Part shown: one piece after another, positions 25,361-44,829 of the stretch
Position numbering within the stretch: the first letter of the stretch is position 1
Layout of the letters: every line of letters begins with the position of its first letter
Source of the DNA: Candidatus Omnitrophota bacterium
GTDB lineage: Bacteria > Omnitrophota > Gorgyraeia > Tantalellales > Tantalellaceae
Assembly (NCBI GenBank): GCA_043823005.1
Contig: JBDRBG010000030.1
Coordinates: 1 to 56,457, forward strand
Direction: 5' to 3'
DNA length: 56,457 nt
Made by a program: the position numbers and the translations under genes
Notes under the pieces: generated by a model
The model's input: only the letters and a program-made list of their open reading frames with translations
What the model was told of the DNA's origin: nothing
Database searches by the model: none

Positions 25361-25383
25361 TGCCGGTAGGCTATATGTGCTGT

Positions 25384-26043: not shown

Positions 26044-26552
26044 GTGATTTTCTGTTCCCCTTGTTTACTTTTTAAACGGTTTAATTCAGATTCAATTTTC
26101 CGCAGGAGTTGATAAGCCTGCTCTTTTTTAGTTTTTTTCAGTTCCCCCAATTTTTTCTTTAATTTCGAAGAAACTTTTTTTTGTTCTTTGCCAGCCTGCT
26201 CTTGAAGTGTCTTGTTTTTTTTGTCTATGTAATCCTGTAATTCTGAATTTTTTTTGCTGATTTCCAGGATTTTCTCGTAACATTGCGCGGCTTGTTCGTA
26301 TCTTTCAAGTTTTTCCAGTTTTTCGGCTAAAAAAAAGAATTCTTCAAGTTCTTTTTTGATAAATTGCAGGTGTTTCACATGCCGTTCTTCTTCTATTTTT
26401 TTCTGAATATCCTGATATGAAACCAGCGAGCTGTTGTATAAACGCCGGATTTCATTTTTTTGCGCGTCAATAGATTGAGCCGGGGATATGTCAGCGCGTA
26501 ACGCGATTATTATAACTGTTATAGTATTTATGGCAACAATAATTTTATTCAT
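26040..26552 (-). CDS. Secreted coiled-coil protein
   Basis: Signal/anchor NKIIVAINTITVIIIALRA followed by K/E-rich heptad-like sequence. Start and stop overlap the neighbouring genes. Confidence 0.55.
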   Translation of the reverse strand: MNKIIVAINTITVIIIALRADISPAQSIDAQKNEIRRLYNSSLVSYQDIQKKIEEERHVKHLQFIKKELEEFFFLAEKLEKLERYEQAAQCYEKILEISKKNSELQDYIDKKNKTLQEQAGKEQKKVSSKLKKKLGELKKTKKEQAYQLLRKIESELNRLKSKQGEQKIT

Positions 26553-26929
26553 TAGTAATTTTTTTCGTAAGTAAGCTTGTCTTCTCTTCTTGAAAAAGGC
26601 GAAAGTCTTTTTATAGTAACAAATTCCGGTTTTATTATAGGCGCGTAATCGTTGGAGCCCGCAAAGGGAAAAGTCAGTGTTTCATAAAGCCCTATGGTTG
26701 TTCTGATGCCTGCTTTTACCAATCCCAGAGGGATTCCGGCGATAAAGCCTATGGGAGATTCGCATTTTTTCATAGTCGCATGCGATGCTAAAAAAACTTC
26801 CAGCCAGCCTGTTGCTATATTAGCAATGCCGCGTCCGAATTTTTGAGCGGGTCCGCCGGCACAAGAAGCGGTACGCGCTGAAAAAATTATTATTAGCAGA
26901 ATTGAAAAAACAATAAATATTTTTTTCAT
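26552..26929 (-). CDS. Small secreted protein resembling the exosortase-associated TIGR04073 family
   Basis: 125 aa with a signal peptide. KFGRGIANIATGWLEV and RTTIGLYETLTFPF...PIIKPEF match my recollection of the TIGR04073 signature (RG..N...GW.E ... G..E..TFP ... PE). No HMM was run. Confidence 0.45.
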   Translation of the reverse strand: MKKIFIVFSILLIIIFSARTASCAGGPAQKFGRGIANIATGWLEVFLASHATMKKCESPIGFIAGIPLGLVKAGIRTTIGLYETLTFPFAGSNDYAPIIKPEFVTIKRLSPFSRREDKLTYEKNY

Positions 26930-26968
26930 ATTGGTTGCTTTTCTTGTTCAAAAAGAAACGTTTAAGTT

Positions 26969-28183: not shown

Positions 28184-28185
28184 AG

Positions 28186-29940
28186 CTACCTCCCGGATTT
28201 TTTAAGATTACGCAACGAATTTATATCAAATTTGGGTTCAAAAAGATCGCGATTTTCAGGCCGGAGTTCTACCGGATATTCTTTGAATTTTTCACGGTCC
28301 CAGCCCATCATCTCATCGCCTCTAATGATATGCGGTGTTAAGAAGATTATTATTTCTGTTTCTTCCTGGGAACTGTCATTGTTGCTGAAAAGAGACCCCA
28401 GGATAGGAATATCGCATAAAAAAGGAGCGCCGTCTATATTGCTTCGGGTGTCGTTTTCTCTTAAGCCGGCTATCATTATCATTGCTCCATCCTTGACTTT
28501 AACCGTTGTTTCAGCCTCGGATGTGGAGATTATCGGTATTATGCTTCGCGGTTCAGTGGCTGATCCTGTTCTCACTTCATCTATCGCTGTACTGACTTCC
28601 GGTTTAATCTTGATTGTGACATAACCATCGCGGTTTATGGTAGGGACGACGACCAGTTTTACCCCGACGTCTACAAATTCAACACTGTCTGATGTTATCG
28701 TCGATTCTCCGCTTTGGCTAAGCGTACCCGTAACAATAGCTTCGCGCCTGCCGACATGTATTACGGCTTCTTCGTTGTTTGTTACGGCGATCTTGGGACT
28801 TGAGAGCACTTTCACGTCTCCTATGGATTTAAGTACATTTATTGCCGCGCTGAAATTATGTTCGGTTGTAGACCCTGTGTTGATATTCTGGTAGCCGGAG
28901 GTCATGCCGGAACCGGGAAACGCTCCTGTAAGTACCGTGCCCCAAAGAGAAGGATTGCTTAATATTTTTTGCCATTCTATGCCGTAATTAAATTCGTCAG
29001 ACAGGGTTATTTGCAATATTTCCGCTTCAATAAAAACCTGTTTGGTTTCCTGATCCATCATCTTGACGGTTTGTTTGATTTTATGCATATTTCCCGGAAG
29101 ATCGGTAACTACGATAGTATTCGTGCGTTCATCGGCCAGTAAGCTTCCGCTTCCTTCCGTTATCAGGGAAGAAAGAGAGTTTTCCATGTCAGCGGCTTTT
29201 GCGTATTGAAGTTCAAAAACTTCTGTTACGCGCGGAATATCGAGGCTGACAAAGATTTCCCTCATATCTTTAAGTTTTTCAGGGGTATCAATAACAATGA
29301 TAGTGCCGGTCAGCTCATCTACCACAACATTTCCTACACTGCTTTTTAAATTGCTTAATGCCGTGAATATCATTTCCGGACTGGCATATCGAGCTTTTAA
29401 GGTTATCAGTTCTCTTTTCTCGTTGAATTTTTTTCCATACACAGCTTCGTATTCGGCTTCGGTCATTACGATGATGACGTTTTCAGCTTTTTCTTCATAA
29501 GCCAATCCCTGGCTCAGCATTATTATGTCAAGAATATCAGCATAATTTACGTTATTAAGAAAAAGATTTATCCGGCCCGTTACATTTTTACTCGGAATGA
29601 TATTTTTATCTAGCTTTTTGGATAGCAGTTTAAAAAATTCATTAATAGCTACTCCTCTGAGATCCAGACTTATAGTTTCTTTTTCCGGATGGGTTTTGGA
29701 GGAGAGCGTCTGCGCGTTGTGTTCTATGTCATAATCGTATGATGGATCGGCGGGAGTATTTGCTGAGGCGGAAGCGGCTGAAAACAATTTTACCGGCACG
29801 TTTTTCTGAACACTGCTTTGCGATAAAACAGAGTCGTCAGGTTCCTGTGATACTGACACAGGTCCTGTCAGTAAAAAAGATAACATTAAAAATAATGTTA
29901 TTTCCGTTATTAAGTTTTTATTTGAGTATTTTTTTACCAT
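28186..29940 (-). CDS. gspD: Secretin (GspD/PilQ family)
   Basis: Signal peptide, N-domains, and the secretin core VLSSPKIAVTNNEEAVIHVG ... IMIAGLRENDTRSNIDGAPFLCDIPILGSLFSNN ... TEIIIFLTPHII. Confidence 0.9.
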   Translation of the reverse strand: MVKKYSNKNLITEITLFLMLSFLLTGPVSVSQEPDDSVLSQSSVQKNVPVKLFSAASASANTPADPSYDYDIEHNAQTLSSKTHPEKETISLDLRGVAINEFFKLLSKKLDKNIIPSKNVTGRINLFLNNVNYADILDIIMLSQGLAYEEKAENVIIVMTEAEYEAVYGKKFNEKRELITLKARYASPEMIFTALSNLKSSVGNVVVDELTGTIIVIDTPEKLKDMREIFVSLDIPRVTEVFELQYAKAADMENSLSSLITEGSGSLLADERTNTIVVTDLPGNMHKIKQTVKMMDQETKQVFIEAEILQITLSDEFNYGIEWQKILSNPSLWGTVLTGAFPGSGMTSGYQNINTGSTTEHNFSAAINVLKSIGDVKVLSSPKIAVTNNEEAVIHVGRREAIVTGTLSQSGESTITSDSVEFVDVGVKLVVVPTINRDGYVTIKIKPEVSTAIDEVRTGSATEPRSIIPIISTSEAETTVKVKDGAMIMIAGLRENDTRSNIDGAPFLCDIPILGSLFSNNDSSQEETEIIIFLTPHIIRGDEMMGWDREKFKEYPVELRPENRDLFEPKFDINSLRNLKKSGR

Positions 29941-30547
29941 TTTGTGATTTCAATATAACTTCGGTTTGTGTTATTTCTGTAATAGTATAGACATCGATTG
30001 TGTCTCCCGCGGAAACAACATAAGTATTGCCCGATATGCCGTCTTCTATGATTGCCTGGGATTCGTCCGACCAGAGAATGCCTACAAGCTGTAGTTCCAT
30101 TTTTTCTTCGGCATATTCCTGGACCGCTGGGGTGTCTTCCGTGTAAGGAATCATATGAAACGGATTATTTTCTTTTGTGCTTTCGTAAAAAGTGGATTGA
30201 TCCGGCATTCCTTTTTGTTTTATATCGATATCCATAAACTCTGTCTTAATTTCACCGGCTTGAAGAGAACGGATCTTTTCGCGTACTATGTCATTATCTT
30301 TTGTGAGGTAGACTGCTACGATGATTGTGGCGATAATGCTTATTGAGATCAATAGTTTAACTGCTGTACGCAAGGATAAATTTTTTAAGGAATATAAGTG
30401 AAAAGGTGATTTGCCGGAGAAAAAAAGGAAAGATCCGGTTTTAGCGGAAACCTTTTTTTTATTATATAATTTGTTATATTCCTGTGATCCTTCGATAAGG
30501 TGAAGGAGCTTTTCTTCGGGAGTTATTTTTTCTAAAGGCGCGGCCAT
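29918..30547 (-). CDS. GspC/PilP-like secretin-interacting protein
   Basis: TM helix LLISISIIATIIVAVYL and a C-terminal HR-like domain LQLVGILWSDESQAIIEDGISGNTYVVSAGDTIDVYTITEITQTEVILKSQNGKKIL. Confidence 0.55.
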   Translation of the reverse strand: MAAPLEKITPEEKLLHLIEGSQEYNKLYNKKKVSAKTGSFLFFSGKSPFHLYSLKNLSLRTAVKLLISISIIATIIVAVYLTKDNDIVREKIRSLQAGEIKTEFMDIDIKQKGMPDQSTFYESTKENNPFHMIPYTEDTPAVQEYAEEKMELQLVGILWSDESQAIIEDGISGNTYVVSAGDTIDVYTITEITQTEVILKSQNGKKILK

Positions 30548-30591
30548 ATTTTATCTTTCTTGTGTCCGTTTTATTTGATTTTTTTTGTGTT

Positions 30592-31416
30592 TTAAATCAA
30601 CACTTCTTTGGATACCAGATGATGTATGGTTTCTTTGGATACTATAGGCTGTTCGGTCATGACCAATTCTCTCAGAGCGTTATGGCACAGCATTCCGACC
30701 CGGCGAGGATAACCCTGTGTATTTTTATAGATCTCTTCAATTGCTTCGTCATCGAAGAGAGGCTGATGTGAATTGTATCCGGCCATTTTCAGTCTAAAGT
30801 CCAGCATTTCTTTTACTTCTTCCAGGCCCAGCGGATTTAATATGTATTTCAGACTTATCCTGTCCGTAAAGTTTTTAAGTTCTTTTATCTGTGCAAGAAG
30901 TTCCATTTGGCCTACCAGTACAAGCTGAAGCAGTTTAAAGTCGTTGGTTTCATAATTTAACAGCATGCGCAGTACTTCAAGGGATTCAGCGTTAAGTTTT
31001 TGCGCTTCATCGATTAAAAGGACTATTGTTTTATTTTGTTCAACTCCTTTTTTGAAAAGGAAATTCTTAAGTTCTTGTTTGTAATCAAGGATGTTTGCGG
31101 TCTCTCGATTGATATTAATCCCAAAAGTATTTATAAGCGCTTCCATAAAAAGATCTTCATTTTTAAATGTGGGGTCAAGGATTATATGGAGTTCAAGGTT
31201 GGATCTTTCTTTTGACATCTGCATTAGTTTTCTGCAGAGAGTAGTTTTGCCGGTTCCGACGTCTCCCAGAATTACGGATAAACCTCTTTTAAGACGGATT
31301 TCAATAAGTATTCGCATCAGGGCCGCTTTATGTTCTTTTGAGAAGAAAAAGAAATGAGGGTCCGGACTTGTAGAAAACGGTTCTTTCTCCATACCTAAAA
31401 CTTCATAATGATACAT
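30592..31416 (-). CDS. gspA: ExeA/GspA (MshM)-type AAA ATPase
   Basis: EKEPFSTSPDPHFFFFSKEHKAALMRI, Walker A GDVGTGKTTLCRKL and Walker B VLLIDEAQ. The size and layout match ExeA-family proteins. Confidence 0.8.
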   Translation of the reverse strand: MYHYEVLGMEKEPFSTSPDPHFFFFSKEHKAALMRILIEIRLKRGLSVILGDVGTGKTTLCRKLMQMSKERSNLELHIILDPTFKNEDLFMEALINTFGININRETANILDYKQELKNFLFKKGVEQNKTIVLLIDEAQKLNAESLEVLRMLLNYETNDFKLLQLVLVGQMELLAQIKELKNFTDRISLKYILNPLGLEEVKEMLDFRLKMAGYNSHQPLFDDEAIEEIYKNTQGYPRRVGMLCHNALRELVMTEQPIVSKETIHHLVSKEVLI

Positions 31417-32473: not shown

Positions 32474-32495
32474 CTGGTAGCCCCAAGGGGATTCG
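32474..32495. repeat. attL (displaced tRNA-Glu 3' fragment)
   Basis: CTGGTAGCCCCAAGGGGATTCG is identical to 44752-44773. Flanking bases differ on both sides. Confidence 0.85.
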
Positions 32496-32627: not shown

Positions 32628-32654
32628 GTTACCGATGGGAAAACCGATGGGAAA
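32628..32654 (+). repeat. 27-nt island-internal direct repeat, left copy (candidate integrase arm-type site)
   Basis: GTTACCGATGGGAAAACCGATGGGAAA versus GTTACCGATGGGAAAACTGATGGGAAA at 44687-44713 (26/27). Each copy is itself a tandem of (C/T)GATGGGAAA. Confidence 0.7.
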
Positions 32655-32892: not shown

Positions 32893-32923
32893 TTGTGAAA
32901 TTAACCAGTAGGCGTGTTATAAT
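32893..32923 (+). promoter_or_regulatory. Candidate extended -10 promoter for the two-gene cargo operon
   Basis: TGTTATAAT (TGn plus TATAAT at 32918-32923). A weak -35 TTGTGA lies at 32893-32898 with a 19-nt spacer. The element is 37 nt upstream of the ATG at 32960. In AT-rich DNA this could be a chance match. Confidence 0.35.
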
Positions 32924-32959: not shown

Positions 32960-35900
32960 ATGAAAAACCCTATAAATAAAAGAAAAATATGCCTAAAAGT
33001 TACTATTTTGACGGTAGTATGTCTTTTATATTTGCATACTATCGTTGGTGCATTGGCCCCGGAGGTGCGATCCGGTACTTTTAACTTCAAGACACGTTTC
33101 TTGAATGAAGCCAATTCTCGCCATTCTTTATCCCCGATCGTAGATACTGTTAGCGGAAGAAAAGATTCATCGATTGTAGCAAATTATAATGCATGGGATG
33201 GAATGATTATTTTTCAGGCAGATAAAGTATCTATTTTTCAGGAAAACGCATCTAAATTTTGCCCTGAGGACCCCGGAGCATTTATTTCAGCGTTGAGACA
33301 ATTTGTAAATACCGGAAAATTATCCCCAATGAGGGTTGATATAGATATTACAAATATTTGTAATAACAAATGTACGATGTGTTTTTCTGCGGATTTTCAA
33401 AAGAAACATCCAGTAATAATTCCAAAAAATAAAATGATAAAGATACTAGAAGATTTAAAGACAATCGGGGTTAAAAGTCTAAGGTTAACAGGTGGCGGAG
33501 ACCCCTTAACTCATCCAGACTTTATATGTTTCGTTGAAAATGCATATAAGCGAGGGTTTAAATTAACCTTAGAAACAAACGGAGATGGTTTGAACAATGG
33601 GATAATAGAAACCATAAGCCGATGCTTTACTCATGTAAGAGTAAGTGTAGATTCAGCTGTTGATAGCACTAGGCAACTAGTACATCAGCCCAAAAGAAAA
33701 GGTGCTACCTATGCAAGATTATTAGAAAACTTAAATAAAATAAAGGCTGAAAAAGAAAGAATAGGACGGCATAATGAATTGCTAATAGGTGCGACATTTT
33801 TGATCTTACCCGAAAATTATAGTGAAGTATATGCTTTCGCGGATGAAATGAAAAATGCAGGTGTGGATTGGATTGCTGTTAGAAAAACATTTAAGGAGGA
33901 TTACTATGACGAACATCCAGAGCATTTAGAGGAGGCGCTAACACAGATCAAAGAAGCCAGGGTTGTTCTTGAAAGTCCTGATTTCAAAATAGTTGGTCCT
34001 TATGGAGTTAGTCGCACCCCAAAAGAAGATTTCAAGGAATGTTTAATAGCAGGAACCAGGCTTGTGATTGTAGCAAATTCGCATATTTCGTTATGCTGTC
34101 TTTTGAGAAGCGGCGTTAATGTGGATGCGATCGATCTAGGGGAAATCGGGGAAGAAAACACACCTGTAATTAAATTGCTTGATGAGAAAAAAGAACAAAT
34201 AGGAGACTTTTTTAATAAAGCTCCCGCTTTTTGCAATGTATGCATTGATGTGGATTTCAATCACTTTTTAAACAGGATCAAGGATTTTCTGGAAGAATCC
34301 CAGGAGAATCTTTTTAGGAGAATGCAGGTATTCCCGCATAGTGGAAGTGAGATCTTAGTAGGAGAAAAAGGTTCGGAAGATGATATTGTTCCTGTATTTG
34401 TGCCCTATGAGCATTTTCGAAAATTCAATGATGGGGAAACGATTTCGTTCAATATGGACGAGATTGTCAGAACATCTAAAAAAATAGATCCGTTTTTAGC
34501 AAGAATAGCAAGGTTTTATCATTTGGAACGAATCTTAATAAGACAACAATCAGTTTCAAAAGAAGCAACACAATCAAAAAAAATATCAGAGCAGTATTCG
34601 GATCTGGACTTTTCTATTTTGAAAAGATTGAGCGAACAATATTTAAAGCCTACAACGCAAATATTAGTAAGCGGAAGCGTGGCTCGAAGACAATCTAACT
34701 TTTATTCTGATTTTGATCTATTTATTGTTGAGGAGACAAGTAATGATCCTGGGATAGGCCCTTTTTTGAGTGCGTTAAAGACTGTTACAGGAAAAGAAAT
34801 TCAAGATTATCATGCATTAAAAGAACAAATGCGGCATCTATATTTTAATTATCCATATGATCGTATGATGATAAATGATACAAGACCGCTTGATAGCACG
34901 AAGAGCTTGTCCGGAATACTCGGAATATCCAGAGAAGAGATTGAAACTAAAGATGCAGAGATTGCATTGTTTTTTTTAATAGGAAACGTTGTAGCGGAAA
35001 AGAAAAGTAAAGGAAAAAGGGATGAAGATATTGATATTAAGCACGATGCAGGGTTGTTTAAATATTTTTCTTTTTTTCTTGCCTCTTTGAACTACTTGTC
35101 AATTCCCCTTAAAAATGAAGACGAACAGTTTATAGAAGAACATTACAGGATTGTTTTGTCTTTCAGAGAAAAGGTGCAGCGTTTTTACGGGAAAGAGACC
35201 AGGATTGTGGGTGAGAAGTTTTTGGAAAATTCGGAAGATAAATTTATTGAGGAATTAAAAGCTTGCATGGAGAGCACGGTAAAATTAGTGAATTCATATG
35301 TGCCGCTAATATTTCAAAAATTGCAACAGAAGCTCCCTGGTCTTGCGGGAGAAGACCTTATGCAGATTTTAAACATAATTAAGGAAGGAAAAGAAGTAGA
35401 GTTTTCGGAAAATACGCCAGAAGCTGTATTAAGTATGTTGGCAGCGTTTTCAGAAAATGAGCTAATACAAATCAGATTGTATCAAATAGCAAGAAAGAAG
35501 TCATCTTGGTCGACATTATATTTTCTTGCACGCAATGAGAAGTGTCCATATGAAATAGTAGTCAAATTGGCTCAAATGGATGGTTATGTAAACAGGGATA
35601 TACGATATGAAGCAGCTAAAAATCCGAATGCGGATGAAAATGTCTGGAAAAAATTAATGACGGATATACATTTGCCGATAGCTAAATATTGCCGCAAAAA
35701 ACTCGGACGAGAGTTACCCCTTGTTAAAAGAAAAACTCTAGTGGTAGAAAGAGATAAGCCGGATCATTGGCAGCGGGAGATAATGAAAACATACAACATT
35801 GTTTTTAATATTATCGGGAAGGAATCAACAAATGAAACTATCCGGTCACAATTTGAAAAGGCTAAGATGAGGTTTGATGAATTTTGGGAGTCAAGCTCGG

Positions 35901-38551
35901 TGCACGAGTACAACGACGTTATGACTCGACTTTTTAGGATAACAAGCGAAATCGTAGAAGATCCATTTGTCGCGGCCAGGGAGCAATTAAATCAAATTGC
36001 AATTGAAATATATGAAAAAAATATCAAGAGTTTTAGCTATATGTCTTTACAGGAATTATTAGAAGCAAGCAGTTCGTTTAATCGCTTAGATGCATTCCTG
36101 AAAGATGATAAATCCGGCTTGAAAGATGCAGATGTGAGGGATTTGCTTGAAACTCAGATAGGCGCAGAGAGTGTTCCCGCGGCTGTAAAGATGCTGGAAG
36201 ATAGTGGAAGTATTGGAATCGTCTTGGATAATTATGGTGAACTTTTAATAGATTTAATGTTAACCGGCCAATTGCTCGCAAAAGGGAAGAATGTTAAGTT
36301 GTTCACTCGCAGTAGACCATTTATGATATCAGATGTAACATCATATGGGCTTTTGGGTTTTCTGGGAAGGATGGACAGAATCCTCGGGATGGAAAAGGTC
36401 TTATCGATCTTAAGGAAAAGTCATAAAAATGGAAAACTAAAGATCATCGCTACTGATGCCTTTTCAGATGGAGAGGAATTGTATTCTGAGGATAAAATGT
36501 CGGTGTTAAGGGAATTCGAAGATCTAGATGTAACGATAATAAAAGGAGATTGGAATTATAAAAGTGCCATTGGAATGAAAAATTGGCAGAGTGAAGATCC
36601 ACTGGAAGAGACAGATCTAAAATATTTTCCAACAGATGTAATAGTACTTAGAGTTGTGAAATCTCCGATTATAGTCGGAGAAAATACACCTAAAGATCCT
36701 GCTGAGTTATTTGGAAAATCTGAAATCAAGGTTTACTCGCAAAAGACCATAGAAGACAAGATCAGGTATATGCAGGAAAACAAAAGCGTTGAAAAAATGC
36801 TTAATGGTACTTTTGTTGTTAAAGATCATCATATTCATTTGGCTCCGACACGAGTTGAAACTTTCATGGAATTAGCTGAAAAAAATAGAAATATTATATT
36901 ATGGAATGATATTGAAAAAGAATGTGGTGTTGATATGAAAGATATCATTGATAGGGGAGATGTTGGCGAGTTAGAAACTGTATTACAAGTATCGAAAAAT
37001 AACGATCTTAAAGATTATCGAACAAAATATTCTATAGTGCAAAGAGCAATGGTAACAATGGACGATGTTGAGAGGGTGGCTTTTGAGATAGGGCAAGATT
37101 GCTACAGTAGCGGAGGGCAATATTGTGAAATCAGATTTGCAGCAGAAGATCCTAAAGTTATGATAGAGAAGATCCTTGCAAGTTATAATGGGCTCATGAA
37201 AGTGTCGGAGATGTACCCGAACTTTGAGTTTGGATTTTTGATAACACTTGAAAAGAGCTTAGATGAGGAAGATGCCGTAGCCATGATAGCTGAACTGGTC
37301 AGGTTTAAAATGGATACTAGCGTTTCTGAGGATATTCGTCGCCGCGTGGTGGGTGTAGATGCCGCAGGAAAAGAAAAGGGATTTAATGCGATGAAATTTA
37401 AGGGAGCTTTTGAAGCTGCCGGGAAATCGGGGCTTTTCGATGTTATCACTTCTCATGCAGGAGAGTCTTTCGGAAGCCTTGAGGAGGGGATACTTGCCAT
37501 AGAAGAGGCCATCGAGGTGTTGGGGGTTAATAGAATAGGGCATAGTATTGCCGCCGGAATTGACCCGGGAATCTTTTTGGGAAAAACAGATGAGTATGGT
37601 GAAGAATATGATGAAGAAAGGGTTATTAAATTATGGAAGATGCAGAATGGACTATTAAAAAAGATAAAGGAACGTGGAATATCTATCGAAATAAATATAT
37701 CAAGCAATCTTAAGACTGGAGCAGTATCAGATATTTCGGAACATCCAATTTCTGCTTTTCTTAAGGAAGGTATCTTGGTGTTAATGGGAACAGATGCACC
37801 CTTGGTGGCAAATATAGATATTTCCAAAGAAATTGATAAACTGCTCACCAGCATTAACTCTAATAGTAGATTAGAAGAAGTGGTATTTGCTAATGGAGAT
37901 GAAATAGAAGAGGCAACAAAAGAGGTAGTCCAAAGCGCTGCAGAAGTAAGGCATTATTTGTCTTTTCAGGAAATTGATCTATTGAACAATTCTCCACTTG
38001 TTGTTATAAAAAAAGATTTTATAGATCGACTATATAAGGAGACCCCTCTGGGAATATTGATGAATGATGGTTATAAAAAAACATTGCAAAAATTGAGAAA
38101 AATGCTGGGTCCGGACAACTTTATTGTTGCAGATGAAGATTTCAAGTTAGATGCGTTTATTGAGAAATCTGTCGCAGGAGGGCGAAAAATAATTATTTTA
38201 GATGATGGTGCTTTAAGTGAACGATATGCAAATACGGGAATAAAAGGAGAGCCGGGGAAGGATTATGTTTTCATGGTTCCCGGGACATCCCTTGATATTA
38301 GAAAAGATGCTGTGGAGTTTGTAGACATTACGGCTCTGGTATTGCTGGGGATCGGCATAATGGACGAAGATGACATGCTGTGTAGGATCGCATATAAAAA
38401 GTTTACAGGAGAAGAGATCACTAAAGAACTGCTATTATCTATACTGACAGGCAAATTAGAAACTATAAATATTTTGCCCAGGATTATAGCCATAAGCTCT
38501 GATGTTGATTGTAGTAGAAGTATGATGAGATTATTTGAGATAGCAGCTTAA
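32960..38551 (+). CDS. 1863-aa multi-enzyme fusion: signal/anchor, radical SAM, nucleotidyltransferase, helical repeats, DUF89 (ARMT1-like phosphatase), adenosine-deaminase-like amidohydrolase, and a C-terminal alpha/beta module
   Basis: N-terminal hydrophobic segment KVTILTVVCLLYLHTIVGALA. Radical SAM CxxxCxxC (CNNKCTMC, nt 33359-33382) with GGGDPL (33491-33508) and a downstream Cys-rich region (CC...C..C, to about 34280). Pol-beta NTase motif GS-x10-DFD (34673-34717). LRV/HEAT-like repeats at aa about 800-920. DUF89 motifs IVLDNYGELLIDL (DN at 36227), RPFMISDVT and KGDWNY (36542-36559). Amidohydrolase motifs HHIH (36827-36838), SHAGES (37451-37468), RIGHS (37532-) and TDAP (37790-37801). 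The C-terminal ~170 aa are unassigned. Confidence 0.8.
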   Translation: MKNPINKRKICLKVTILTVVCLLYLHTIVGALAPEVRSGTFNFKTRFLNEANSRHSLSPIVDTVSGRKDSSIVANYNAWDGMIIFQADKVSIFQENASKFCPEDPGAFISALRQFVNTGKLSPMRVDIDITNICNNKCTMCFSADFQKKHPVIIPKNKMIKILEDLKTIGVKSLRLTGGGDPLTHPDFICFVENAYKRGFKLTLETNGDGLNNGIIETISRCFTHVRVSVDSAVDSTRQLVHQPKRKGATYARLLENLNKIKAEKERIGRHNELLIGATFLILPENYSEVYAFADEMKNAGVDWIAVRKTFKEDYYDEHPEHLEEALTQIKEARVVLESPDFKIVGPYGVSRTPKEDFKECLIAGTRLVIVANSHISLCCLLRSGVNVDAIDLGEIGEENTPVIKLLDEKKEQIGDFFNKAPAFCNVCIDVDFNHFLNRIKDFLEESQENLFRRMQVFPHSGSEILVGEKGSEDDIVPVFVPYEHFRKFNDGETISFNMDEIVRTSKKIDPFLARIARFYHLERILIRQQSVSKEATQSKKISEQYSDLDFSILKRLSEQYLKPTTQILVSGSVARRQSNFYSDFDLFIVEETSNDPGIGPFLSALKTVTGKEIQDYHALKEQMRHLYFNYPYDRMMINDTRPLDSTKSLSGILGISREEIETKDAEIALFFLIGNVVAEKKSKGKRDEDIDIKHDAGLFKYFSFFLASLNYLSIPLKNEDEQFIEEHYRIVLSFREKVQRFYGKETRIVGEKFLENSEDKFIEELKACMESTVKLVNSYVPLIFQKLQQKLPGLAGEDLMQILNIIKEGKEVEFSENTPEAVLSMLAAFSENELIQIRLYQIARKKSSWSTLYFLARNEKCPYEIVVKLAQMDGYVNRDIRYEAAKNPNADENVWKKLMTDIHLPIAKYCRKKLGRELPLVKRKTLVVERDKPDHWQREIMKTYNIVFNIIGKESTNETIRSQFEKAKMRFDEFWESSSVHEYNDVMTRLFRITSEIVEDPFVAAREQLNQIAIEIYEKNIKSFSYMSLQELLEASSSFNRLDAFLKDDKSGLKDADVRDLLETQIGAESVPAAVKMLEDSGSIGIVLDNYGELLIDLMLTGQLLAKGKNVKLFTRSRPFMISDVTSYGLLGFLGRMDRILGMEKVLSILRKSHKNGKLKIIATDAFSDGEELYSEDKMSVLREFEDLDVTIIKGDWNYKSAIGMKNWQSEDPLEETDLKYFPTDVIVLRVVKSPIIVGENTPKDPAELFGKSEIKVYSQKTIEDKIRYMQENKSVEKMLNGTFVVKDHHIHLAPTRVETFMELAEKNRNIILWNDIEKECGVDMKDIIDRGDVGELETVLQVSKNNDLKDYRTKYSIVQRAMVTMDDVERVAFEIGQDCYSSGGQYCEIRFAAEDPKVMIEKILASYNGLMKVSEMYPNFEFGFLITLEKSLDEEDAVAMIAELVRFKMDTSVSEDIRRRVVGVDAAGKEKGFNAMKFKGAFEAAGKSGLFDVITSHAGESFGSLEEGILAIEEAIEVLGVNRIGHSIAAGIDPGIFLGKTDEYGEEYDEERVIKLWKMQNGLLKKIKERGISIEINISSNLKTGAVSDISEHPISAFLKEGILVLMGTDAPLVANIDISKEIDKLLTSINSNSRLEEVVFANGDEIEEATKEVVQSAAEVRHYLSFQEIDLLNNSPLVVIKKDFIDRLYKETPLGILMNDGYKKTLQKLRKMLGPDNFIVADEDFKLDAFIEKSVAGGRKIIILDDGALSERYANTGIKGEPGKDYVFMVPGTSLDIRKDAVEFVDITALVLLGIGIMDEDDMLCRIAYKKFTGEEITKELLLSILTGKLETINILPRIIAISSDVDCSRSMMRLFEIAA

Positions 38552-38574: not shown

Positions 38575-41500
38575 ATGAAGAATTGGAAAAAATTTGGACT
38601 TTTGACGAAAAGTATAGCTATAAGCGTTATATGCTTATTGCTTTTTAATGATGCATTGATTGCAGAGGGCTTCAGGAAAGGCAAAAAAACTCTGCAGCCG
38701 CCTACTATTTTTACTGTACCGGATGAAAAGGACACATTTTTTATTGCGATAAGTGGATATTTAGGATTTTATCTTGTTGATATCGAGAATGAACCTGAAA
38801 ACTGCAATGTGTTACGGATGAGAAATAGGGTAAGAGCGGCGGTAAAAGATATACAGGCAGTAAAAGGCATACCGGACAAAGTGAAAAACAAAATCCCCAA
38901 AATATCATATGATCAAGATGGATTCGTACTAGTGATCGATTTCGATGAGTTTACGGTGCGATATTTTAATCACAATCTTGCAGATTCAGAGATCTTTTGG
39001 GAACCCGGGCAAGAAGCGAATTATTATGTATCAGAAACGTGTAAAGGGAAATACCTGACAAGACAGATTATTACCCAAAGATCTTTGCTTTCATCGGGAA
39101 AACCAGTAGGTGAAACAGGAAAAGGATCTTCAGCATTAGGAGCAACCTCGATAGCCGGGGATGAAGCTTCAGAGGTATTGAATCTCTCTAGCCTGACTCA
39201 AGGATTGTTTGAATTTGATCTTCGCGCTGTGGAGATCGCGTTGAGTTATTTTAAACCCAATGTTGATATCGATCAGCTTGAAAATCAATTGATGAAGGTT
39301 GAAGGGGTTAGCCTTATACGATGGGTAGATAATGTCTTAACAATTGTCGGAAATAGTGAAATTGTTAAGTTTCATTTAAAAAGTGATGAGATCAATGAGC
39401 GGCTTGGATTAAAGGACAGATTATACATTATGGACGCAGACTTGGAGCAGGATATAACAGTCAAGATATATGCCAGGGATGAGCGTGATGATAAAAGGGG
39501 TATTGGGCCCGTATATATTCTCGGAGTAGTGCGCACTAGCCATGATTCGGGAGCTGTTTTGATAAAAGATGGTGTTGTAATAGGTGCGATTGAAGAAGAA
39601 AGATTGGATATGAATAAACATACACGTGCATATTTTCCAATCTTGGCGACAAGGTATTTATTGGAGGAACAAGGTGTAAAATGGGAACAAGTAAATCATA
39701 TCGCGACCACGTATGATTATAACTGGTTTAGAGATACCCCACACAGTAGAGCTCCTCGTGATCATTTTCACGAAAGATTTGGCTTGCCGGAACTTGCAGA
39801 TGACAAGAAATTATATAATACTGATACGTTGCAAACATTTTTGGAAAGATTAGCTGAGACTTATGGATCTGAATATGTACCCCCGGTTACATTTGTAAAA
39901 CATCACAAAACACATGCTGCAGCCGCGTGGCATACCAGTGGTTTTCCTGAACCTACACTTGCGGTTACTATTGACGGACGTGGCGAAGATGAAGCGACTA
40001 CTGTGTGGCTATGTGCTGAAGGAAAGATGAAAAAAATAAGCTCTGAATCATATATACACTCTCTAGGACATCTTTATTACATAGTTACAAAATATATCGG
40101 ATATAGGAGCCATGATGAGGGGAAAGTAATGGGCTTTGCGCCGTATGGCGCCGCGCGAAATTATGAAGAGGAAGAAAGGGTAGATAAGCTAAGGTTATTA
40201 ATGGATGAGGCTGTTAGCTTTGATACAACAACAGGTCATATACAGCTCGATCAGGATTGTTTTAACTTTTTTACTTTAGAAAACTTCCCTGGAATGGACT
40301 TTTCAGATGGATTTTTAAAAAGGCTTGAAGCGGTTGTGCCGAAGTATCCCAAAAGCATGGCGGGAACAGAACTCGATCCTGATAGAGAAGAACATCGTCC
40401 GTATGCGAATCTTGCGTACGTTCTTCAAGAAAAAGTCGAGGAAAGCATGATCCGTATGCTCGAATATTATTTACAGGAATACCCTGAAACCAAAGGGGTT
40501 AAGCATGTAGTTATGGGAGGCGGATTATCCTTAAATATTGCAGCAAATGGAAAGGTCATTGAATCGGGTGTTGTTGATGCCGATAAGTTCTTTGTCCCGG
40601 CTTTCCCTGCTGATGACGGCACAGCAGTCGGTGCAGCTTTGTCAGTAGCAGAGGAAGAATATGACCTAAATGCCAGAAATATTGTTGCTAAAATATCTCT
40701 AGGGAAGACTTATTCCGATGAGGAGATAAGTTTAACATTGGATAGATATGGTTTGGTTGAAGGAGAAGATTATTTCGCTATGCGGGATGATGTCGCGCTT
40801 GTTGAAACCGTAGCTGAAACTTTAGAAAATAATAGAACAGTAGCCTGGTATCAGGGGGGTGCTGAATTGGGACCCAGAGCTTTAGGAAATAGAAGTATTT
40901 TACACAGATTAGATGATCCTGAAGGGAACCTTAAAGTTAATGAAATAAAGAATCGCGAATACTGGAGGCCATCAGCTTTGTCAATTCAGCAGGAAAGAGC
41001 ATCTGAGTTTCTTGAAGGAATTGCAGTCTCACCATTTATGACTATAGGCTTTAAAGTTAAAGATGAAAAGAGAGACATCATAAGGGCCGGTGTACATTCA
41101 GCCGATGGGACAACTCGTCCACAAACTGTATTCCGTGAAGCAAATCCTATCTATTGGGCCTTGTTGGGGGAAATGGATAAAAGAACCGGTATTCCAGGAG
41201 TTTTAAATACATCTTTTAATAGAAGGGGGCCAATTATAGAAACGCCTGAAGATGCTCTTAACACTCTATATTATGGTCATGGAATCGATCAATTAGCGAT
41301 CGGACATTTTATTGTGAATAGGACCCAGCGCTTGCAGCCGAGTATCTTGAATTTGCAAGATGAACCGACTTTAAGAAAACAATATAAAGATATCATGGAT
41401 GATAATTATGATGTAAGCAAATGGCAACAATTTTCAAGAGATCTAAATCATCTGGTTGAATCACGAGGAGCAGCTCACCAGCATTTTCTGACTGTAAGTT

Positions 41501-42567
41501 CACTTGGTTCAGCCGGTAAAATAGATGTATTAAAAATTCCACTTTGTAAAGAAATGTTCCAAAGAGGCTCGCGTGAAAAAATGATTCCGGAGATGGCTGC
41601 ATACATTCATGAGAGAATAGGTCGCAAAACAAATGCAAATATTGTGATAAGTTCAACTTCTCACGAATATGAGGATGTGGTCATTAGCTTGTTTGAACGA
41701 TTTACTCCACTGGAAATTGTCAGGAATTGGCGAATCATGAAGGGTGATCCAAATGGAGACCTGTCTTGGGGAAATAGGGGAAGAGCACATGGAACCGACA
41801 AGGGAAAATTGTTGATAGTAGCAGGTCTTGATCCTGAAACCCAAAGAGTACAGCCGGAGATAATGATAATCGACAATGCTGAAGTGAAGACATTGTGGGG
41901 AAAAGATAGAATTATTAAAAACGCACAAGAAAAGATAATTCCTCAGCTCGTGCAGACTTTGATCGCTGCTTCGGAAAATATCGCGAAAAAAACACCAAAC
42001 CAAAAAGCTGCAATTTTGATTGACACTGAACTAGCTGAAGTTGGTTTTAGGGATGTTAAAAAAGAAATTGAGAAAATGATTAAACTTCTTGCAAATATTG
42101 AAGGGAATAATGAATATCTTCGTAGTTTCTTGAAAAACCTTGAGATCGTAGTTGGAAAGGGGAAGGATCTTATAAAGAAAAAAGGTAAGGTTAAAGATGA
42201 AAATGTAATAGTTGTAACAACAAAAGAAAATATGCAATATTTTGATGAAGCTTTATACGGAAAAGCCGTAATAGCGGCGATTGACAGAAAAGATTTTCCC
42301 AAAACCGCATATTTACCTTTATTAGAGGTGACATTATTTGCGATCGGAAAATATTTAGGGTGGAATGAGAATAAGATCAAACAACATTACATGAATATTC
42401 CAAATACCATTCCTCTTGAAATGATGGAAAGCGCAAATATTAATGATTTATTCGATGCTAACAAAAGAACTTTTATTATAAAACTGATTCCGAATGCAAT
42501 TGCCTTTGAGAAAAATGAATTAGTTGAGATGATGATGAATATAAGAAAAAGTCTAAGAAATGCATGA
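38575..42567 (+). CDS. 1330-aa NodU/CmcH/TobZ-family carbamoyltransferase flanked by large unknown N- and C-terminal regions
   Basis: Signal-like N-terminus SIAISVICLLLFNDALIA. The carbamoyltransferase core spans aa about 313-917 (nt about 39511-41325). Its motifs are YILGVVRTSHDSGAVLIKDGVVIGAIEEERLDMNKHT, HHKTHAAAA (39901-), VVMGGGLSLNIAANG, FPADDGTAVGAALS, GPRALGNRSIL (40870-), HSADGTTRPQTV and VLNTSFNRRGPIIETPEDAL. It starts 23 nt after the previous stop, on the same strand. Confidence 0.85.
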   Translation: MKNWKKFGLLTKSIAISVICLLLFNDALIAEGFRKGKKTLQPPTIFTVPDEKDTFFIAISGYLGFYLVDIENEPENCNVLRMRNRVRAAVKDIQAVKGIPDKVKNKIPKISYDQDGFVLVIDFDEFTVRYFNHNLADSEIFWEPGQEANYYVSETCKGKYLTRQIITQRSLLSSGKPVGETGKGSSALGATSIAGDEASEVLNLSSLTQGLFEFDLRAVEIALSYFKPNVDIDQLENQLMKVEGVSLIRWVDNVLTIVGNSEIVKFHLKSDEINERLGLKDRLYIMDADLEQDITVKIYARDERDDKRGIGPVYILGVVRTSHDSGAVLIKDGVVIGAIEEERLDMNKHTRAYFPILATRYLLEEQGVKWEQVNHIATTYDYNWFRDTPHSRAPRDHFHERFGLPELADDKKLYNTDTLQTFLERLAETYGSEYVPPVTFVKHHKTHAAAAWHTSGFPEPTLAVTIDGRGEDEATTVWLCAEGKMKKISSESYIHSLGHLYYIVTKYIGYRSHDEGKVMGFAPYGAARNYEEEERVDKLRLLMDEAVSFDTTTGHIQLDQDCFNFFTLENFPGMDFSDGFLKRLEAVVPKYPKSMAGTELDPDREEHRPYANLAYVLQEKVEESMIRMLEYYLQEYPETKGVKHVVMGGGLSLNIAANGKVIESGVVDADKFFVPAFPADDGTAVGAALSVAEEEYDLNARNIVAKISLGKTYSDEEISLTLDRYGLVEGEDYFAMRDDVALVETVAETLENNRTVAWYQGGAELGPRALGNRSILHRLDDPEGNLKVNEIKNREYWRPSALSIQQERASEFLEGIAVSPFMTIGFKVKDEKRDIIRAGVHSADGTTRPQTVFREANPIYWALLGEMDKRTGIPGVLNTSFNRRGPIIETPEDALNTLYYGHGIDQLAIGHFIVNRTQRLQPSILNLQDEPTLRKQYKDIMDDNYDVSKWQQFSRDLNHLVESRGAAHQHFLTVSSLGSAGKIDVLKIPLCKEMFQRGSREKMIPEMAAYIHERIGRKTNANIVISSTSHEYEDVVISLFERFTPLEIVRNWRIMKGDPNGDLSWGNRGRAHGTDKGKLLIVAGLDPETQRVQPEIMIIDNAEVKTLWGKDRIIKNAQEKIIPQLVQTLIAASENIAKKTPNQKAAILIDTELAEVGFRDVKKEIEKMIKLLANIEGNNEYLRSFLKNLEIVVGKGKDLIKKKGKVKDENVIVVTTKENMQYFDEALYGKAVIAAIDRKDFPKTAYLPLLEVTLFAIGKYLGWNENKIKQHYMNIPNTIPLEMMESANINDLFDANKRTFIIKLIPNAIAFEKNELVEMMMNIRKSLRNA

Positions 42568-42754: not shown

Positions 42755-43234
42755 TCAATTTTTATGATCTGTTTCTAGAACCAGGTAGCGTAATTTCGAA
42801 TAAGTCTTAATGAACTCTTTAAGGAGTTTTTTTACTTCACTAATATATCTGGCATTGGGAATTTCTTTAGAATTGTTTAATTCCTTGATTAGCTTTCCGG
42901 CGAAAGCGTTCGTGATCGCCGGTTTTTTAAGTATTACATTTTCAAATAGTTTTAATTCTTTGCTATTGAGATCGGAGTCCTTGCCGGGAGCGCTTAATGA
43001 ACTATAGTCGGAAAGATTGAGCTTGTGCAGCTTTTCGGCAAAGTACTTCGTTTTTAGTTCTATCTGCAGCGCATGTTCTATTCGTTCGATTATGGCGGGG
43101 GAGGGGAGCTTGCCGTGTTTTTCTATCTGTGTGATATAGACAGGGTTCACTTCGACTTTTTGAGCGAGTTCGTAGACCTTAAGCCCTAATGCCAATCTTT
43201 TATCCCTAATTATCTGTCCCAGGTTTTTTGCCAT
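42755..43234 (-). CDS. XRE-family HTH regulator with a ~100-aa C-terminal extension
   Basis: MAKNLGQIIRDKRLALGLKVYELAQKVEVNPVYITQIEKHGKLPS is a classic HTH_3 domain. I prefer the ATG at 43234 over the TTG at 43264 used by the ORF track. The gene is divergent from xis-int. Confidence 0.8.
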   Translation of the reverse strand: MAKNLGQIIRDKRLALGLKVYELAQKVEVNPVYITQIEKHGKLPSPAIIERIEHALQIELKTKYFAEKLHKLNLSDYSSLSAPGKDSDLNSKELKLFENVILKKPAITNAFAGKLIKELNNSKEIPNARYISEVKKLLKEFIKTYSKLRYLVLETDHKN

Positions 43235-43282
43235 ACCAGAAGTATACTCTAAAAAAACAAACAAATCAATTAGTTTTAAGTG

Positions 43283-43311
43283 TTGACATTTGTGGTTTCT
43301 TGATATATAAT
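43283..43311 (+). promoter_or_regulatory. Perfect-consensus sigma70 promoter driving xis-int
   Basis: TTGACA (43283-43288), an exact 17-nt spacer, then TATAAT (43306-43311). It lies in the 160-bp divergent region between XRE and xis. TTAGTT(T)TAA repeats at 43270 and 43329 flank it. Confidence 0.7.
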
Positions 43312-43394: not shown

Positions 43395-43580
43395 ATGGTT
43401 AAAGAAGACTTCATATGGTCGGATGAGATGTGTGAGTTGTGTGGGATCGCCAAGAAAACATTGCAGGATCCCCGGTGGCGGAAGGGTGTGAGGATCCCGG
43501 TAAAGAAATTCGGGAGGTCTCTTGTAGCGGCAAGAGGTGAATTTGCTGAGTGGTTCAACGGTCGGTTAAAAAATGCCTAA
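43395..43580 (+). CDS. xis: Excisionase/AlpA-like small HTH protein
   Basis: 61 aa from the ATG at 43395, with RBS GGAGG 7 nt upstream. The ORF-track start at 43347 is a TTG. MCELCGIAKKTLQDPRWRKGVRIPVKKFGRSLV fits the MerR/excisionase-type HTH. The stop overlaps the int start (ATGCCTAA). Confidence 0.6.
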   Translation: MVKEDFIWSDEMCELCGIAKKTLQDPRWRKGVRIPVKKFGRSLVAARGEFAEWFNGRLKNA

Positions 43581-44676
43581 GAGTAAACGTAAATACATTA
43601 AGACCAGATACCAGGGCGTTCGAAGGTATGTAGGAGATGACTGCCTGTTTGAGATATATTACAGGCCGTACCGTGGCGCTAAGCCGAAATATGTGACCAT
43701 AACGGCAAGCTCCGCCGAAGAAGCAAGGAAAGAGCGTGTGCGTCTGCAAAATGAAGATATGAACCTTACAGGTATCAGCCGGAGAGGGGAGCCTATGAAT
43801 TTTGAGGGGTACAAAAGCCTGTTGATAGAAAAATGTAAAACTGAGGATGTCGATAAAACTATCAGGAATTATCTTGCAGTTTTCACAAGGTTTTATACAT
43901 GGCTTTCAGGGGCTCCGGCGAATATTGAAGATCTGAGCAGGATCAATTCTGTAGTTATGGAGCTTTATCACCTATATGTTGTAAATGAGCTGAAGCTGGA
44001 CTGGCGAAATGAGCTGACCAAAATACGCGCGATAATCAAAAAGTTTGTGGATATCGGTAAACGTGACGAGAAAGTTTATACGGATGTTCTGAGGAAGATC
44101 AAGAAACCACCCAGAAAAGAAAAGGCATATGTGGATATATCTCCTGAGGATAAGAAGATCTTCCTGGAATATACCAGGGAAAAGAGGCCTGACTATTACG
44201 GGATATTATACCTTAATATGCGTTTTGGCTGGCGGAGAGAGCAGGTTATTTTACTCAGGAAATCCGACGTTAGCATTGAGCTGGGTAGACCCGTTGCGAT
44301 AACATTCAGGCCGGAAACCACTAAAACGAAGGTCCCGTATGTTTTTAGGGATATTGATGAGCAGCTTGCCGCGGTGTTGAATGAGTACCGGCTTAAAGCT
44401 CTAGGGTCTGAGTATCTTTTCCCGAATAAGTCAGGTGGTAAACATCATTCCAACCATTACACCTCCTGGGTGACAAAGAACAGCTTAAAAGTCCTGGGGA
44501 AGAAGATCCGGCCGCACGACTTCAGGCATGCTTTTTGTACAAAGATGCTGCAGAAGGGTTATTCTAAAAAAGATATTATGGCTGTTACCGGGCATAGGAG
44601 CGAGGGATGTTTCGATATGTATGTTCACGCGACAAGCGAGGGTACCAGGCGGGTTATAGAAAGTTCGGCTCTTTGA
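43573..44676 (+). CDS. int: Tyrosine recombinase / phage-type integrase
   Basis: C-terminal catalytic signature R...HDFRHAFCT...GH...Y (IRPHDFRHAFCTKMLQKG, VTGHRSEGCFDMYVH). It lies adjacent to the tRNA 3' end. Confidence 0.9.
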   Translation: MPKSKRKYIKTRYQGVRRYVGDDCLFEIYYRPYRGAKPKYVTITASSAEEARKERVRLQNEDMNLTGISRRGEPMNFEGYKSLLIEKCKTEDVDKTIRNYLAVFTRFYTWLSGAPANIEDLSRINSVVMELYHLYVVNELKLDWRNELTKIRAIIKKFVDIGKRDEKVYTDVLRKIKKPPRKEKAYVDISPEDKKIFLEYTREKRPDYYGILYLNMRFGWRREQVILLRKSDVSIELGRPVAITFRPETTKTKVPYVFRDIDEQLAAVLNEYRLKALGSEYLFPNKSGGKHHSNHYTSWVTKNSLKVLGKKIRPHDFRHAFCTKMLQKGYSKKDIMAVTGHRSEGCFDMYVHATSEGTRRVIESSAL

Positions 44677-44686: not shown

Positions 44687-44713
44687 GTTACCGATGGGAA
44701 AACTGATGGGAAA
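44687..44713 (+). repeat. 27-nt island-internal direct repeat, right copy
   Basis: See 32628-32654. It lies 38 nt inside attR. Confidence 0.7.

Positions 44714-44751: not shown

Positions 44752-44829
<78 letters not shown>

Follow-up and report, generated by a model that had tools for sequence, protein, structure and literature searches.

Why should a mobile island carry four enzymes fused into one polypeptide? The question is raised by a gene of a Candidatus Omnitrophota bacterium (GenBank assembly GCA_043823005.1, contig JBDRBG010000030.1), of which positions 1 to 56,457 were analysed as a single stretch of 56,457 nucleotides (the window). The gene encodes W1863, a protein of 1863 amino acids (aa) in which a first-pass annotation, made from the letters alone, had seen the signatures of a radical S-adenosylmethionine (SAM) enzyme (rSAM), a pol-beta nucleotidyltransferase (NTase), a DUF89 phosphatase and an adenosine deaminase (ADA). 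Our analysis argues that W1863 is a genuine multi-enzyme, built around an rSAM module that recurs in otherwise shuffled surroundings. The function that we favour, tentatively and at a little less than an even chance, is that of a multi-step enzyme that would tailor nucleotides into nucleosides.

A single polypeptide with four enzyme modules

All ten motifs on which the four assignments had been based are found in W1863, in the order and with the spacing first described (domain limits in Table 1): CNNKCTMC (aa 134-141) and GGGDPL (aa 178-183) of the rSAM enzyme, GS-x10-DFD (aa 572-586) of the NTase, LDNYGE (aa 1089-1094), SDVT (aa 1124-1127) and KGDWNY (aa 1195-1200) of the DUF89 phosphatase, and HHIH (aa 1290-1293), SHAGES (aa 1498-1503), RIGHS (aa 1525-1529) and TDAP (aa 1611-1614) of the deaminase. 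Profile searches with Pfam back three of the four domains, namely Radical_SAM (PF04055, aa 130-290, E 4e-17, 63 bits against a cut-off of 29.5), ARMT1-like_dom (PF01937, aa 988-1242, E 5e-26, 92 bits against 25) and A_deaminase (PF00962, aa 1334-1626, E 8e-32, 111 bits against 27). The DUF89 domain also matches the Schizosaccharomyces pombe damage-control phosphatase 7t7k in the PDB (E 1.4e-10). The NTase remains below threshold with Pfam NTP_transf_2 (PF01909; E 0.046 for the whole of W1863 and 0.0085 for the excised segment), and a profile of three sequences found no match in the PDB; it is backed instead by AlphaFold2 (AF2) modelling and Foldseek. The four assignments stand, three by Pfam and the NTase at the level of a modelled fold.

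For the NTase, an AF2 model of the whole 420-aa NTase-helical region was discarded, as its core had a predicted local distance difference test (pLDDT) score below 50 and its Foldseek matches were generic alpha-solenoid noise. A trimmed construct of 250 aa (aa ~535-785), modelled with four homologues, reached a pLDDT of 81.9 and shows the canonical alpha-beta-alpha-beta-alpha-beta-beta core with a helical bundle behind it. When this model was compared with the PDB, the top 35 Foldseek matches were all NTases of the pol-beta superfamily. Matches included ANT(4') (6nmk, E 8e-4), the AMPylation domain of DrrA/SidM (6yx5_B, query TM-score [TMq] 0.54) and GlnE (3k7d, TMq 0.44), as well as AAD(9), AadA and MNT antitoxins. 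As modelled, the NTase of W1863 is a pol-beta adenylyltransferase-like fold of the ANT/GlnE/DrrA type.

The catalytic signatures had been described as intact, and they look so, except that the second Asp of the ADA motif TDDP, a residue that contacts the purine N7, is Ala in the deaminase (TDAP). This variant raises the possibility that the substrate of the deaminase is an unusual adenine nucleoside, one candidate being 5'-deoxyadenosine, a by-product of the rSAM reaction. Its best NCBIfam equivalog is Add, at 100.6 bits and short of the cut-off of 412. RdrB of the RADAR system scores 14.5 bits (E 1.7e-3) against the 100 bits of Add, while CARF_ADA gives E 1.5e-11; by these profile scores, housekeeping Add is a nearer relative of the domain than either RdrB or Cad1.

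It could be argued that such an open reading frame (ORF) is an assembly chimera or a decaying pseudogene, the more so as the ARMT1-ADA and ADA-C-terminus junctions are found on this contig alone. However, the 5.6-kb ORF is unbroken in DNA of 37% GC, every catalytic motif is kept, and codon usage is homogeneous across the domains (cosine 0.94-0.96 per domain). Moreover, the orthologues are collinear with W1863 over 1190 aa, spanning the rSAM-NTase-ARMT1 junctions, and the end motif of the family is still present at the C-terminus after the ADA insertion. We therefore consider this explanation very improbable: there is no sign of the chimera against which the first-pass annotation had cautioned, and, judging from codon usage and collinearity, W1863 is a genuine single-polypeptide multi-enzyme.

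The radical-SAM module as the constant unit

The cluster cysteines of the rSAM module are C134, C138 and C141, its SAM motif GGGDP lies at aa 178-182, and its N-extension bears NAWDGM and NASKFCPEDP. Four auxiliary cysteines (Cys361, Cys379, Cys425 and Cys428), invariant or nearly so in 11 family members, point to a putative, fully ligated auxiliary Fe-S cluster of the twitch type; SPASM Pfam matches in relatives of the module are weak (E 0.04-0.09). The nearest solved relatives, found in the PDB by sequence search at E ~1e-5, are DesII (the best match), SkfB, MoaA, a viperin-like enzyme and BlsE. Four of these five use nucleotide-linked substrates: a TDP-sugar (DesII), GTP (MoaA), a nucleoside triphosphate (the viperin-like enzyme) and a nucleoside (BlsE). 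By its profile score the module is not a viperin, since W1863 does not reach the viperin equivalog NF038283 (58 bits against a cut-off of 180).

Relatives proved extremely rare. They were sought among 5.8 billion proteins with a word index and, exhaustively, among 1.84 billion cluster representatives with HMMER. The word-indexed search found three fusion relatives of the module, P0002, P0003 and P0004, all on Omnitrophota-type contigs, the best orthologue being that of Ca. Tantalella remota (P0002); the HMMER search found no further fusion. When 185,579 species genomes and the JGI metagenomes were scanned with peptide patterns of the family, only the Ca. Tantalella remota locus was recovered; the other matches, among them arrays in Elusimicrobia, were small rSAM genes of no relation and were set aside. 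Phage and plasmid collections yielded generic rSAM relatives only (24-30% identity). Across W1863, P0002, P0003 and P0004 the rSAM module is 44-55% identical, and ARMT1 stands beside it in three of the four. The NTase-like region belongs to an orphan family with four members, in which GS-x10-DFD is invariant; a profile of the four sequences found, among the 5.8 billion proteins, only P0024, which is the sole stand-alone member. Seen through these alignments, the rSAM module is the constant unit and the remaining architecture is a shuffled mosaic around it. The combination of the four domains had been proposed to be undescribed and this holds, in that no database or literature match shows rSAM, NTase, DUF89 and ADA together; a literature search on DUF89, rSAM and ADA fusions found nothing relevant.

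The whole rSAM module also occurs as a stand-alone protein of ~330-450 aa in other phyla, with the N-extension and the four auxiliary cysteines kept. The genes around these relatives (Table 1) are informative: the SIR2 partner matches the ThsA model at 1.7e-27, the neighbours include Abi_C and AbiEii, and Nudix is fused or adjacent to the rSAM relative in four cases (P0022, L078, L079/L080 and L084), every Nudix partner matching the PADLOC candidate model PDC-S07. The operons of stand-alone rSAM with SIR2, HD or Nudix look like an undescribed candidate antiphage system; no paper was found describing a system of rSAM, SIR2 and Nudix. A 447-aa neighbour of P0022, considered as an NTase homologue, was rejected for lack of similarity. 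In a further operon, from a Margulisiibacteriota metagenome-assembled genome (MAG; L075:5688-9230), the genes for a PHP phosphoesterase, an rSAM protein (446 aa) and P0024 follow one another; its arrangement mirrors the fused rSAM-NTase-phosphatase order.

Given these neighbourhoods, it is tempting to propose that W1863 itself serves in antiphage defence. On infection it would drain or poison the nucleotide pool of the cell that carries it, either like viperin, through a chain terminator, or like RADAR, through adenine deamination. W1863 is indeed island-borne, its stand-alone relatives share operons with ThsA-like SIR2, HD-TPR and PDC-S07-like Nudix proteins, with Abi_C, AbiEii and a type I restriction-modification (RM) S subunit nearby, and partial matches to pVip (70 bits), CARF_ADA and RdrB are obtained. 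However, none of the PADLOC system models is satisfied, the viperin equivalog and RdrB scores fall short as described above, and an Xre-type helix-turn-helix (HTH) protein is the sole sensor or regulator in the island. Moreover, an export-like N-terminus, present on the Omnitrophota versions and on none of the stand-alone relatives, fits poorly with a cytoplasmic defence enzyme. Finally, the orthologues show no enrichment near defence genes or integrases at the two readable loci, neither of which lies in a defence island, and P0002 is encoded in the core chromosome, between ftsA and proC. We therefore regard a role of W1863 in defence as unlikely.

Nucleotide tailoring as the favoured function

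What, then, might W1863 do? The partners that recur with the rSAM module (DUF89, Nudix, EEP, guanylate kinase, the AMP-transferase-like domain and adenosine deaminase) all act on nucleotides or phosphoesters, and for this reason nucleotide conversion is the most economical reading. In the scheme that we propose, the rSAM module would use radical chemistry on a substrate that is, or is linked to, a nucleotide (probably a purine one), and the fused domains would work on the substrate or the product of this step. The ANT/GlnE/DrrA-like domain would attach AMP, as the nucleotidyl group, to a hydroxyl or remove it from one, a phosphate would be taken off by the DUF89 domain, and the Add-like deaminase would turn an adenine moiety into hypoxanthine, its target being either the product or the by-product 5'-deoxyadenosine. 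W1330, the 1330-aa protein encoded directly downstream and probably co-transcribed, could add an O-carbamoyl group to the nucleoside or sugar so formed. In this scheme we infer the substrate class, the order of the steps, the involvement of the neighbouring gene and the cellular location; the intact gene, its domains, the island, the rarity of the fusion, the shuffling among orthologues and the neighbours of the module's relatives are observations. A nucleotide or nucleoside conversion had already been suggested in the first-pass annotation; the nucleotide chemistry is now independently backed by the relatives of the rSAM module and by their partners, while a conserved pairing with a carbamoyltransferase and a defence context of the orthologues are not supported.

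Several observations weigh against nucleotide tailoring. The likeness of the rSAM module to characterised enzymes is weak (E ~1e-5) and concerns chiefly the generic half-barrel; likewise, the PADLOC pVip models match W1863 at model positions 6-139 of 262 only. The rSAM protein of the Margulisiibacteriota operon is distant from the W1863 module (24% identity). The carbamoyltransferase pairing is peculiar to this island. By the positive-inside rule, the N-terminal segment of W1863 should export the protein, and export would place domains that depend on SAM, ATP, carbamoyl phosphate and Fe-S clusters outside the cytoplasm, for which the tailoring model has no explanation. Finally, the deaminase is present in W1863 only and in none of the three fusion orthologues, which makes it an accessory.

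This optional deaminase invites a more modest explanation, in which it serves, perhaps together with the DUF89 domain, to clear the by-products of the rSAM reaction, converting 5'-deoxyadenosine into 5'-deoxyinosine and disposing of deoxyribose phosphates. DadD of methanogens is a precedent for the clearance of 5'-deoxyadenosine, DUF89 proteins are damage-control phosphatases, and the Ala in TDAP hints at an unusual adenine nucleoside as substrate. However, DUF89 is kept with the NTase in three of the four orthologues, suggesting a role in the pathway itself, and we deem mere metabolite housekeeping quite improbable.

If the chemistry is as we propose for nucleotide tailoring, W1863 would be a 'Rosetta stone' that links an uncharacterised rSAM family to nucleotide processing by way of an adenylyltransferase, a phosphatase, a deaminase, a kinase and Nudix. 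Once the reaction of this family is worked out, a new antimetabolite or signal derived from a nucleotide could come to light.

The carbamoyltransferase neighbour

The gap between the W1863 and W1330 genes is only 23 nucleotides (nt), and because of this the two probably form one operon. Aa 317-917 of W1330 match the O-carbamoyltransferase TobZ (3ven) end to end (E 7e-59). The first-pass annotation had proposed a search for a conserved pairing of W1863 with a carbamoyltransferase, yet neither of the readable orthologue loci encodes one. The TobZ-like module, flanked by conserved pre- and post-domains of its own, recurs in ~12 Omnitrophota-type proteins of 845-2259 aa (P0006-P0017), in which it is variously fused to a PfkB kinase, a methyltransferase, a ribulose-phosphate epimerase (RPE), a phosphoribosyltransferase (PRTase)-like domain or a class-B rSAM domain. 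One of these, P0016, was considered as a 'Rosetta stone' joining rSAM and carbamoyltransferase and then dropped, its rSAM domain being of the B12-binding class B and unrelated to the W1863 module.

The presence of a TobZ-like enzyme makes it conceivable that W1863 tailors a sugar, an aminocyclitol or a glycan, modifying a nucleoside diphosphate (NDP)-sugar or aminoglycoside-like compound for use in the envelope or in a metabolite that is secreted. In that case the NTase would act as an aminoglycoside O-nucleotidyltransferase does, in keeping with its best fold matches, ANT(4'), AAD(9) and AadA. DesII is the best PDB sequence match of the rSAM domain, W1330 matches TobZ, NovN and GdmN, and its module is fused elsewhere to PfkB kinase, RPE and methyltransferase. 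Furthermore, P0018 is encoded between giant proteins with dehydroquinate (DHQ)-synthase, ROK, epimerase and B12-rSAM domains, and the published Omnitrophota long-protein modules group radical SAM with sugar enzymes (West-Roberts et al., 2023, 10.1101/2023.11.21.568195; 2026 preprint, 10.64898/2026.06.07.730766). On the other hand, an adenosine deaminase, a guanylate kinase and the recurring links to Nudix speak for nucleotides and not for free sugars, and the likeness to aminoglycoside enzymes exists only at the fold level (10-15% identity). Sugar tailoring thus strikes us as doubtful.

The termini of W1863

If nucleotide tailoring is the function of W1863, where in the cell would it take place? 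The N-terminus of W1863, judged like all others here by a heuristic of hydropathy and charge only, looks like a signal peptide or a signal anchor. A 19-residue hydrophobic segment after a positively charged N-terminus is found in W1863, W1330, a 1141-aa ORF of the window, P0003, P0004 and two of the carbamoyltransferase relatives examined, P0006 and P0017; the N-termini of P0002 and P0018 fall just under the hydropathy cut-off and appear similar by eye. None of the stand-alone rSAM relatives of other phyla has such an N-terminus. The same conflict, of export signals on cofactor-dependent enzymes, is described for long proteins of Omnitrophota in the two preprints: 94% of these carry a signal peptide or transmembrane (TM) segment, radical SAM is a recurrent domain, and the genes are flanked by type II secretion system (T2SS) or type IV pilus (T4P) genes and by mobile elements (10.1101/2023.11.21.568195; 10.64898/2026.06.07.730766).

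Perhaps the export-like N-termini are to be taken at face value. W1863 and W1330 would then be effectors that an Omnitrophota bacterium living as an epibiont or a predator exports and delivers into its prey, where they would make the purine nucleotides of the prey toxic or drain them. The product in the prey would be a toxic carbamoylated nucleoside analogue, the prey cell would supply SAM, ATP and Fe-S assembly, and an rSAM module of conflict systems would have been turned into a mobile multi-enzyme toxin for attack. Appealing as it is, we hold this scenario to be a long shot. The broader question is why cofactor-dependent cytoplasmic enzymes of Omnitrophota bear export-like N-termini and ride mobile islands, and W1863, at 1.9 kaa, is far more tractable than the giants of the phylum (>10 kaa).

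The extreme C-terminus carries a motif as well, consisting of a hydrophobic strand, [LI]P, an amphipathic helix of ~23 residues and A[LM]x[SA]A-COOH. Three proteins encoded in the window (motif at 38450-38548, 42470-42564 and 52090-52190) and P0002, P0003 and P0004 carry it, the Pro lying 24-25 residues before the end in these six proteins, and P0018 and P0009 match at the end only. The motif could be a sorting or degradation tag. A shared C-terminal domain was considered and dropped: only the terminal motif of ~30 aa is common, and a strict regular expression for it misses W1863 itself. Indeed, pairwise BLASTP of the C-terminal 260 aa gave nothing significant except for P0002 versus P0003.

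The island and its surroundings

The first-pass annotation had placed W1863 on a tRNA-integrated island, which the integrase, the tRNA-Glu gene and a 22-bp repeat confirm, the cargo being W1863 and the carbamoyltransferase gene. The island measures 12.3 kb and is bounded by the exact direct repeat CTGGTAGCCCCAAGGGGATTCG (22/22 identical). The tandem ACCGATGGGAAA repeats just inside its two ends are possible arm-type sites of the integrase. A perfect sigma-70 consensus (TTGACA-17-TATAAT, 43283-43311) lies 5' of the integrase gene, between it and the divergent HTH gene. The Rfam scan gave the tRNA as its only match and no riboswitch upstream of W1863, and Pfam annotation of the window genes revealed no RdrA-like gene in the island. 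The G+C content of the island is the same as that of its flanks; since no deviation in G+C is seen and the best relatives of both cargo proteins are from Omnitrophota, the island circulates within this phylum.

Upstream of the island, a truncated ORF of >3160 aa (27-9509) runs off the window start and has a C-terminal membrane anchor, and a T2SS/T4P-like cluster (16993-31416) that follows it encodes pseudopilins (22624-23613), a secretin (28186-29940), an AAA_22 ATPase (30592-31416) and TPR proteins, a setting that has been described for giant genes of Omnitrophota. Two overlapping ORFs, 46481-49906 (1141 aa) and 49803-52193 (796 aa), have no Pfam domain. The former begins with a strong hydrophobic segment and the latter ends in the terminal motif of the island proteins (...KALISL); the two may be one gene broken by a frameshift or a sequencing error.

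Table 1. Features of the window and relatives of the rSAM module (positions are those of the window, or of the named locus for relatives)
Feature	Position	Strand	Basis or content
Distal att-like core, left border; copy of the tRNA-Glu 3' end (CTGGTAGCCCCAAGGGGATTCG)	32474..32495	.	identical to 44752-44773
Tandem ACCGATGGGAAA repeat, inside left end	32628..32654	.	26/27 bases as in the other copy
Promoter-like site GTGAAA-17-TATAAT with extended TG	32895..32923	+	consensus match only; 37 nt 5' of W1863 ATG
W1863, 1863-aa multi-enzyme ORF	32960..38551	+	uninterrupted, 1863 codons
W1863 N-terminal hydrophobic segment, aa 14-32; N-flank net charge +6	32999..33055	+	Kyte-Doolittle 2.22
Radical-SAM module, aa 62-505: N-extension, CxxxCxxC core, GGGDP, twitch/SPASM-like extension	33143..34474	+	Pfam, alignments
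Adenylyltransferase-like pol-beta NTase, then helical bundle and HEAT-like alpha-solenoid, aa ~535-985	34562..35914	+	motif, AF2, Foldseek
ARMT1/DUF89 metal-dependent phosphatase domain, aa 988-1242	35921..36685	+	Pfam, PDB match
Adenosine-deaminase-type amidohydrolase domain, aa ~1285-1630	36812..37849	+	Pfam; HHIH, SHAGES, RIGHS, TDAP
C-terminal region, aa ~1641-1863, without recognised fold; ends ILP-x23-...EIAA	37880..38551	+	motif-level likeness only, not statistically significant
W1330, 1330 aa; TobZ-like O-carbamoyltransferase aa 317-917 (nt 39523-41325), 410-aa C-terminal region	38575..42567	+	PDB, Pfam
HTH_3 (Xre-type) regulator of island	42755..43264	-	Pfam
Tyrosine integrase (Phage_integrase family)	43573..44676	+	Pfam
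Tandem ACCGATGGGAAA repeat, second copy, inside right end	44687..44713	.	26/27 bases identical
tRNA-Glu(CTC), integration target; 3' end 44752-44773 = proximal att core	44753..44829	-	Rfam, repeat
P0002, 2710 aa, Ca. Tantalella remota (Omnitrophota)			rSAM, NTase-like, ARMT1, inserted guanylate kinase, further domains
P0003, 1643 aa			rSAM, NTase-like, ARMT1
P0004, 1225 aa			HATPase_c, rSAM
P0022, gammaproteobacterial MAG			rSAM-Nudix fusion 3' of smpB, among Abi_C, DUF4238, Bro-N genes
L078	8001-11588		rSAM, ThsA-like SIR2-TPR, Nudix, in this order
L085	3183-7281		SIR2, then rSAM, beside type I RM S subunit
L084	3051-7302		HAD/Nudix, HD-TPR, rSAM, in this order
L079 / L080	L079 8001-9688		rSAM, 86-aa gene, Nudix, in this order
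L077			EEP phosphoesterase directly upstream of rSAM
L074	8001-9731		among loci with rSAM relative in SIR2/HD/Nudix operon or Nudix fusion

Relation to known systems

How does W1863 compare with systems that are already known? Vertebrate viperin with CMPK2, and the prokaryotic viperins (pVip), likewise tie an rSAM enzyme to nucleotide-handling partners, the parallel in the W1863 family being the nucleoside monophosphate (guanylate) kinase of P0002, and the likeness extends to the defence-like loci of the stand-alone rSAM relatives and to the partial HMM match. However, W1863 matches only the generic N-terminal half, far below the equivalog cut-off, and is not a member; to our knowledge viperins have neither the auxiliary-cluster cysteine extension nor the N-extension of the W1863 module. 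RADAR RdrB and Cad1 (CARF-ADA) employ an ADA-fold deaminase in a conflict setting, but the HMM and PDB matches of W1863 to them are weak, and W1863, being closer to housekeeping Add and having neither an RdrA ATPase nor a CARF domain, is not a member of these either.

The step types that we propose are known from biosynthetic pathways. In oxetanocin-A synthesis, the rSAM enzyme OxsB and the phosphohydrolase OxsA convert an adenine nucleotide into a nucleoside analogue, and in the futalosine pathway the rSAM step of MqnE is followed by an adenosine-deaminase-type enzyme, aminofutalosine deaminase, that acts on the adenosyl product. The same types of step would be combined in W1863, the likeness being one of chemistry and not of demonstrated sequence relationship; OxsB is B12-dependent and OxsA is an HD-domain protein, and both pairs consist of separate cytoplasmic proteins. 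As for the neighbouring gene, W1330 matches both the Kae1-like and the YrdC-like halves of TobZ, NovN and GdmN in full, but differs from them in that the carbamoyltransferase is embedded in a protein of 1330 aa, which adds 316 aa before it and 410 aa after it and has a hydrophobic segment at its N-terminus.

The closest parallel is offered by the long proteins of Omnitrophota. W1863 shares with them the phylum, an N-terminus that resembles a signal peptide or TM segment, a patchwork of domains usually found in cytoplasmic enzymes, radical SAM among them, T2SS/T4P genes (secretin and pseudopilins) nearby and carriage on mobile DNA. It is far smaller (1.9 kaa versus >10 kaa) and has a single hydrophobic segment, and its set of rSAM, ANT-like NTase, DUF89 and ADA is not reported in the parts read of either preprint. 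Its architecture is thus unreported and nearly unique, yet a variant within the described multi-enzyme phenomenon of this phylum. W1863 is best filed, by its domain make-up, as a small and unusually legible member of the Omnitrophota multi-enzyme class, one built round a module whose relatives elsewhere look like enzymes of conflict systems.

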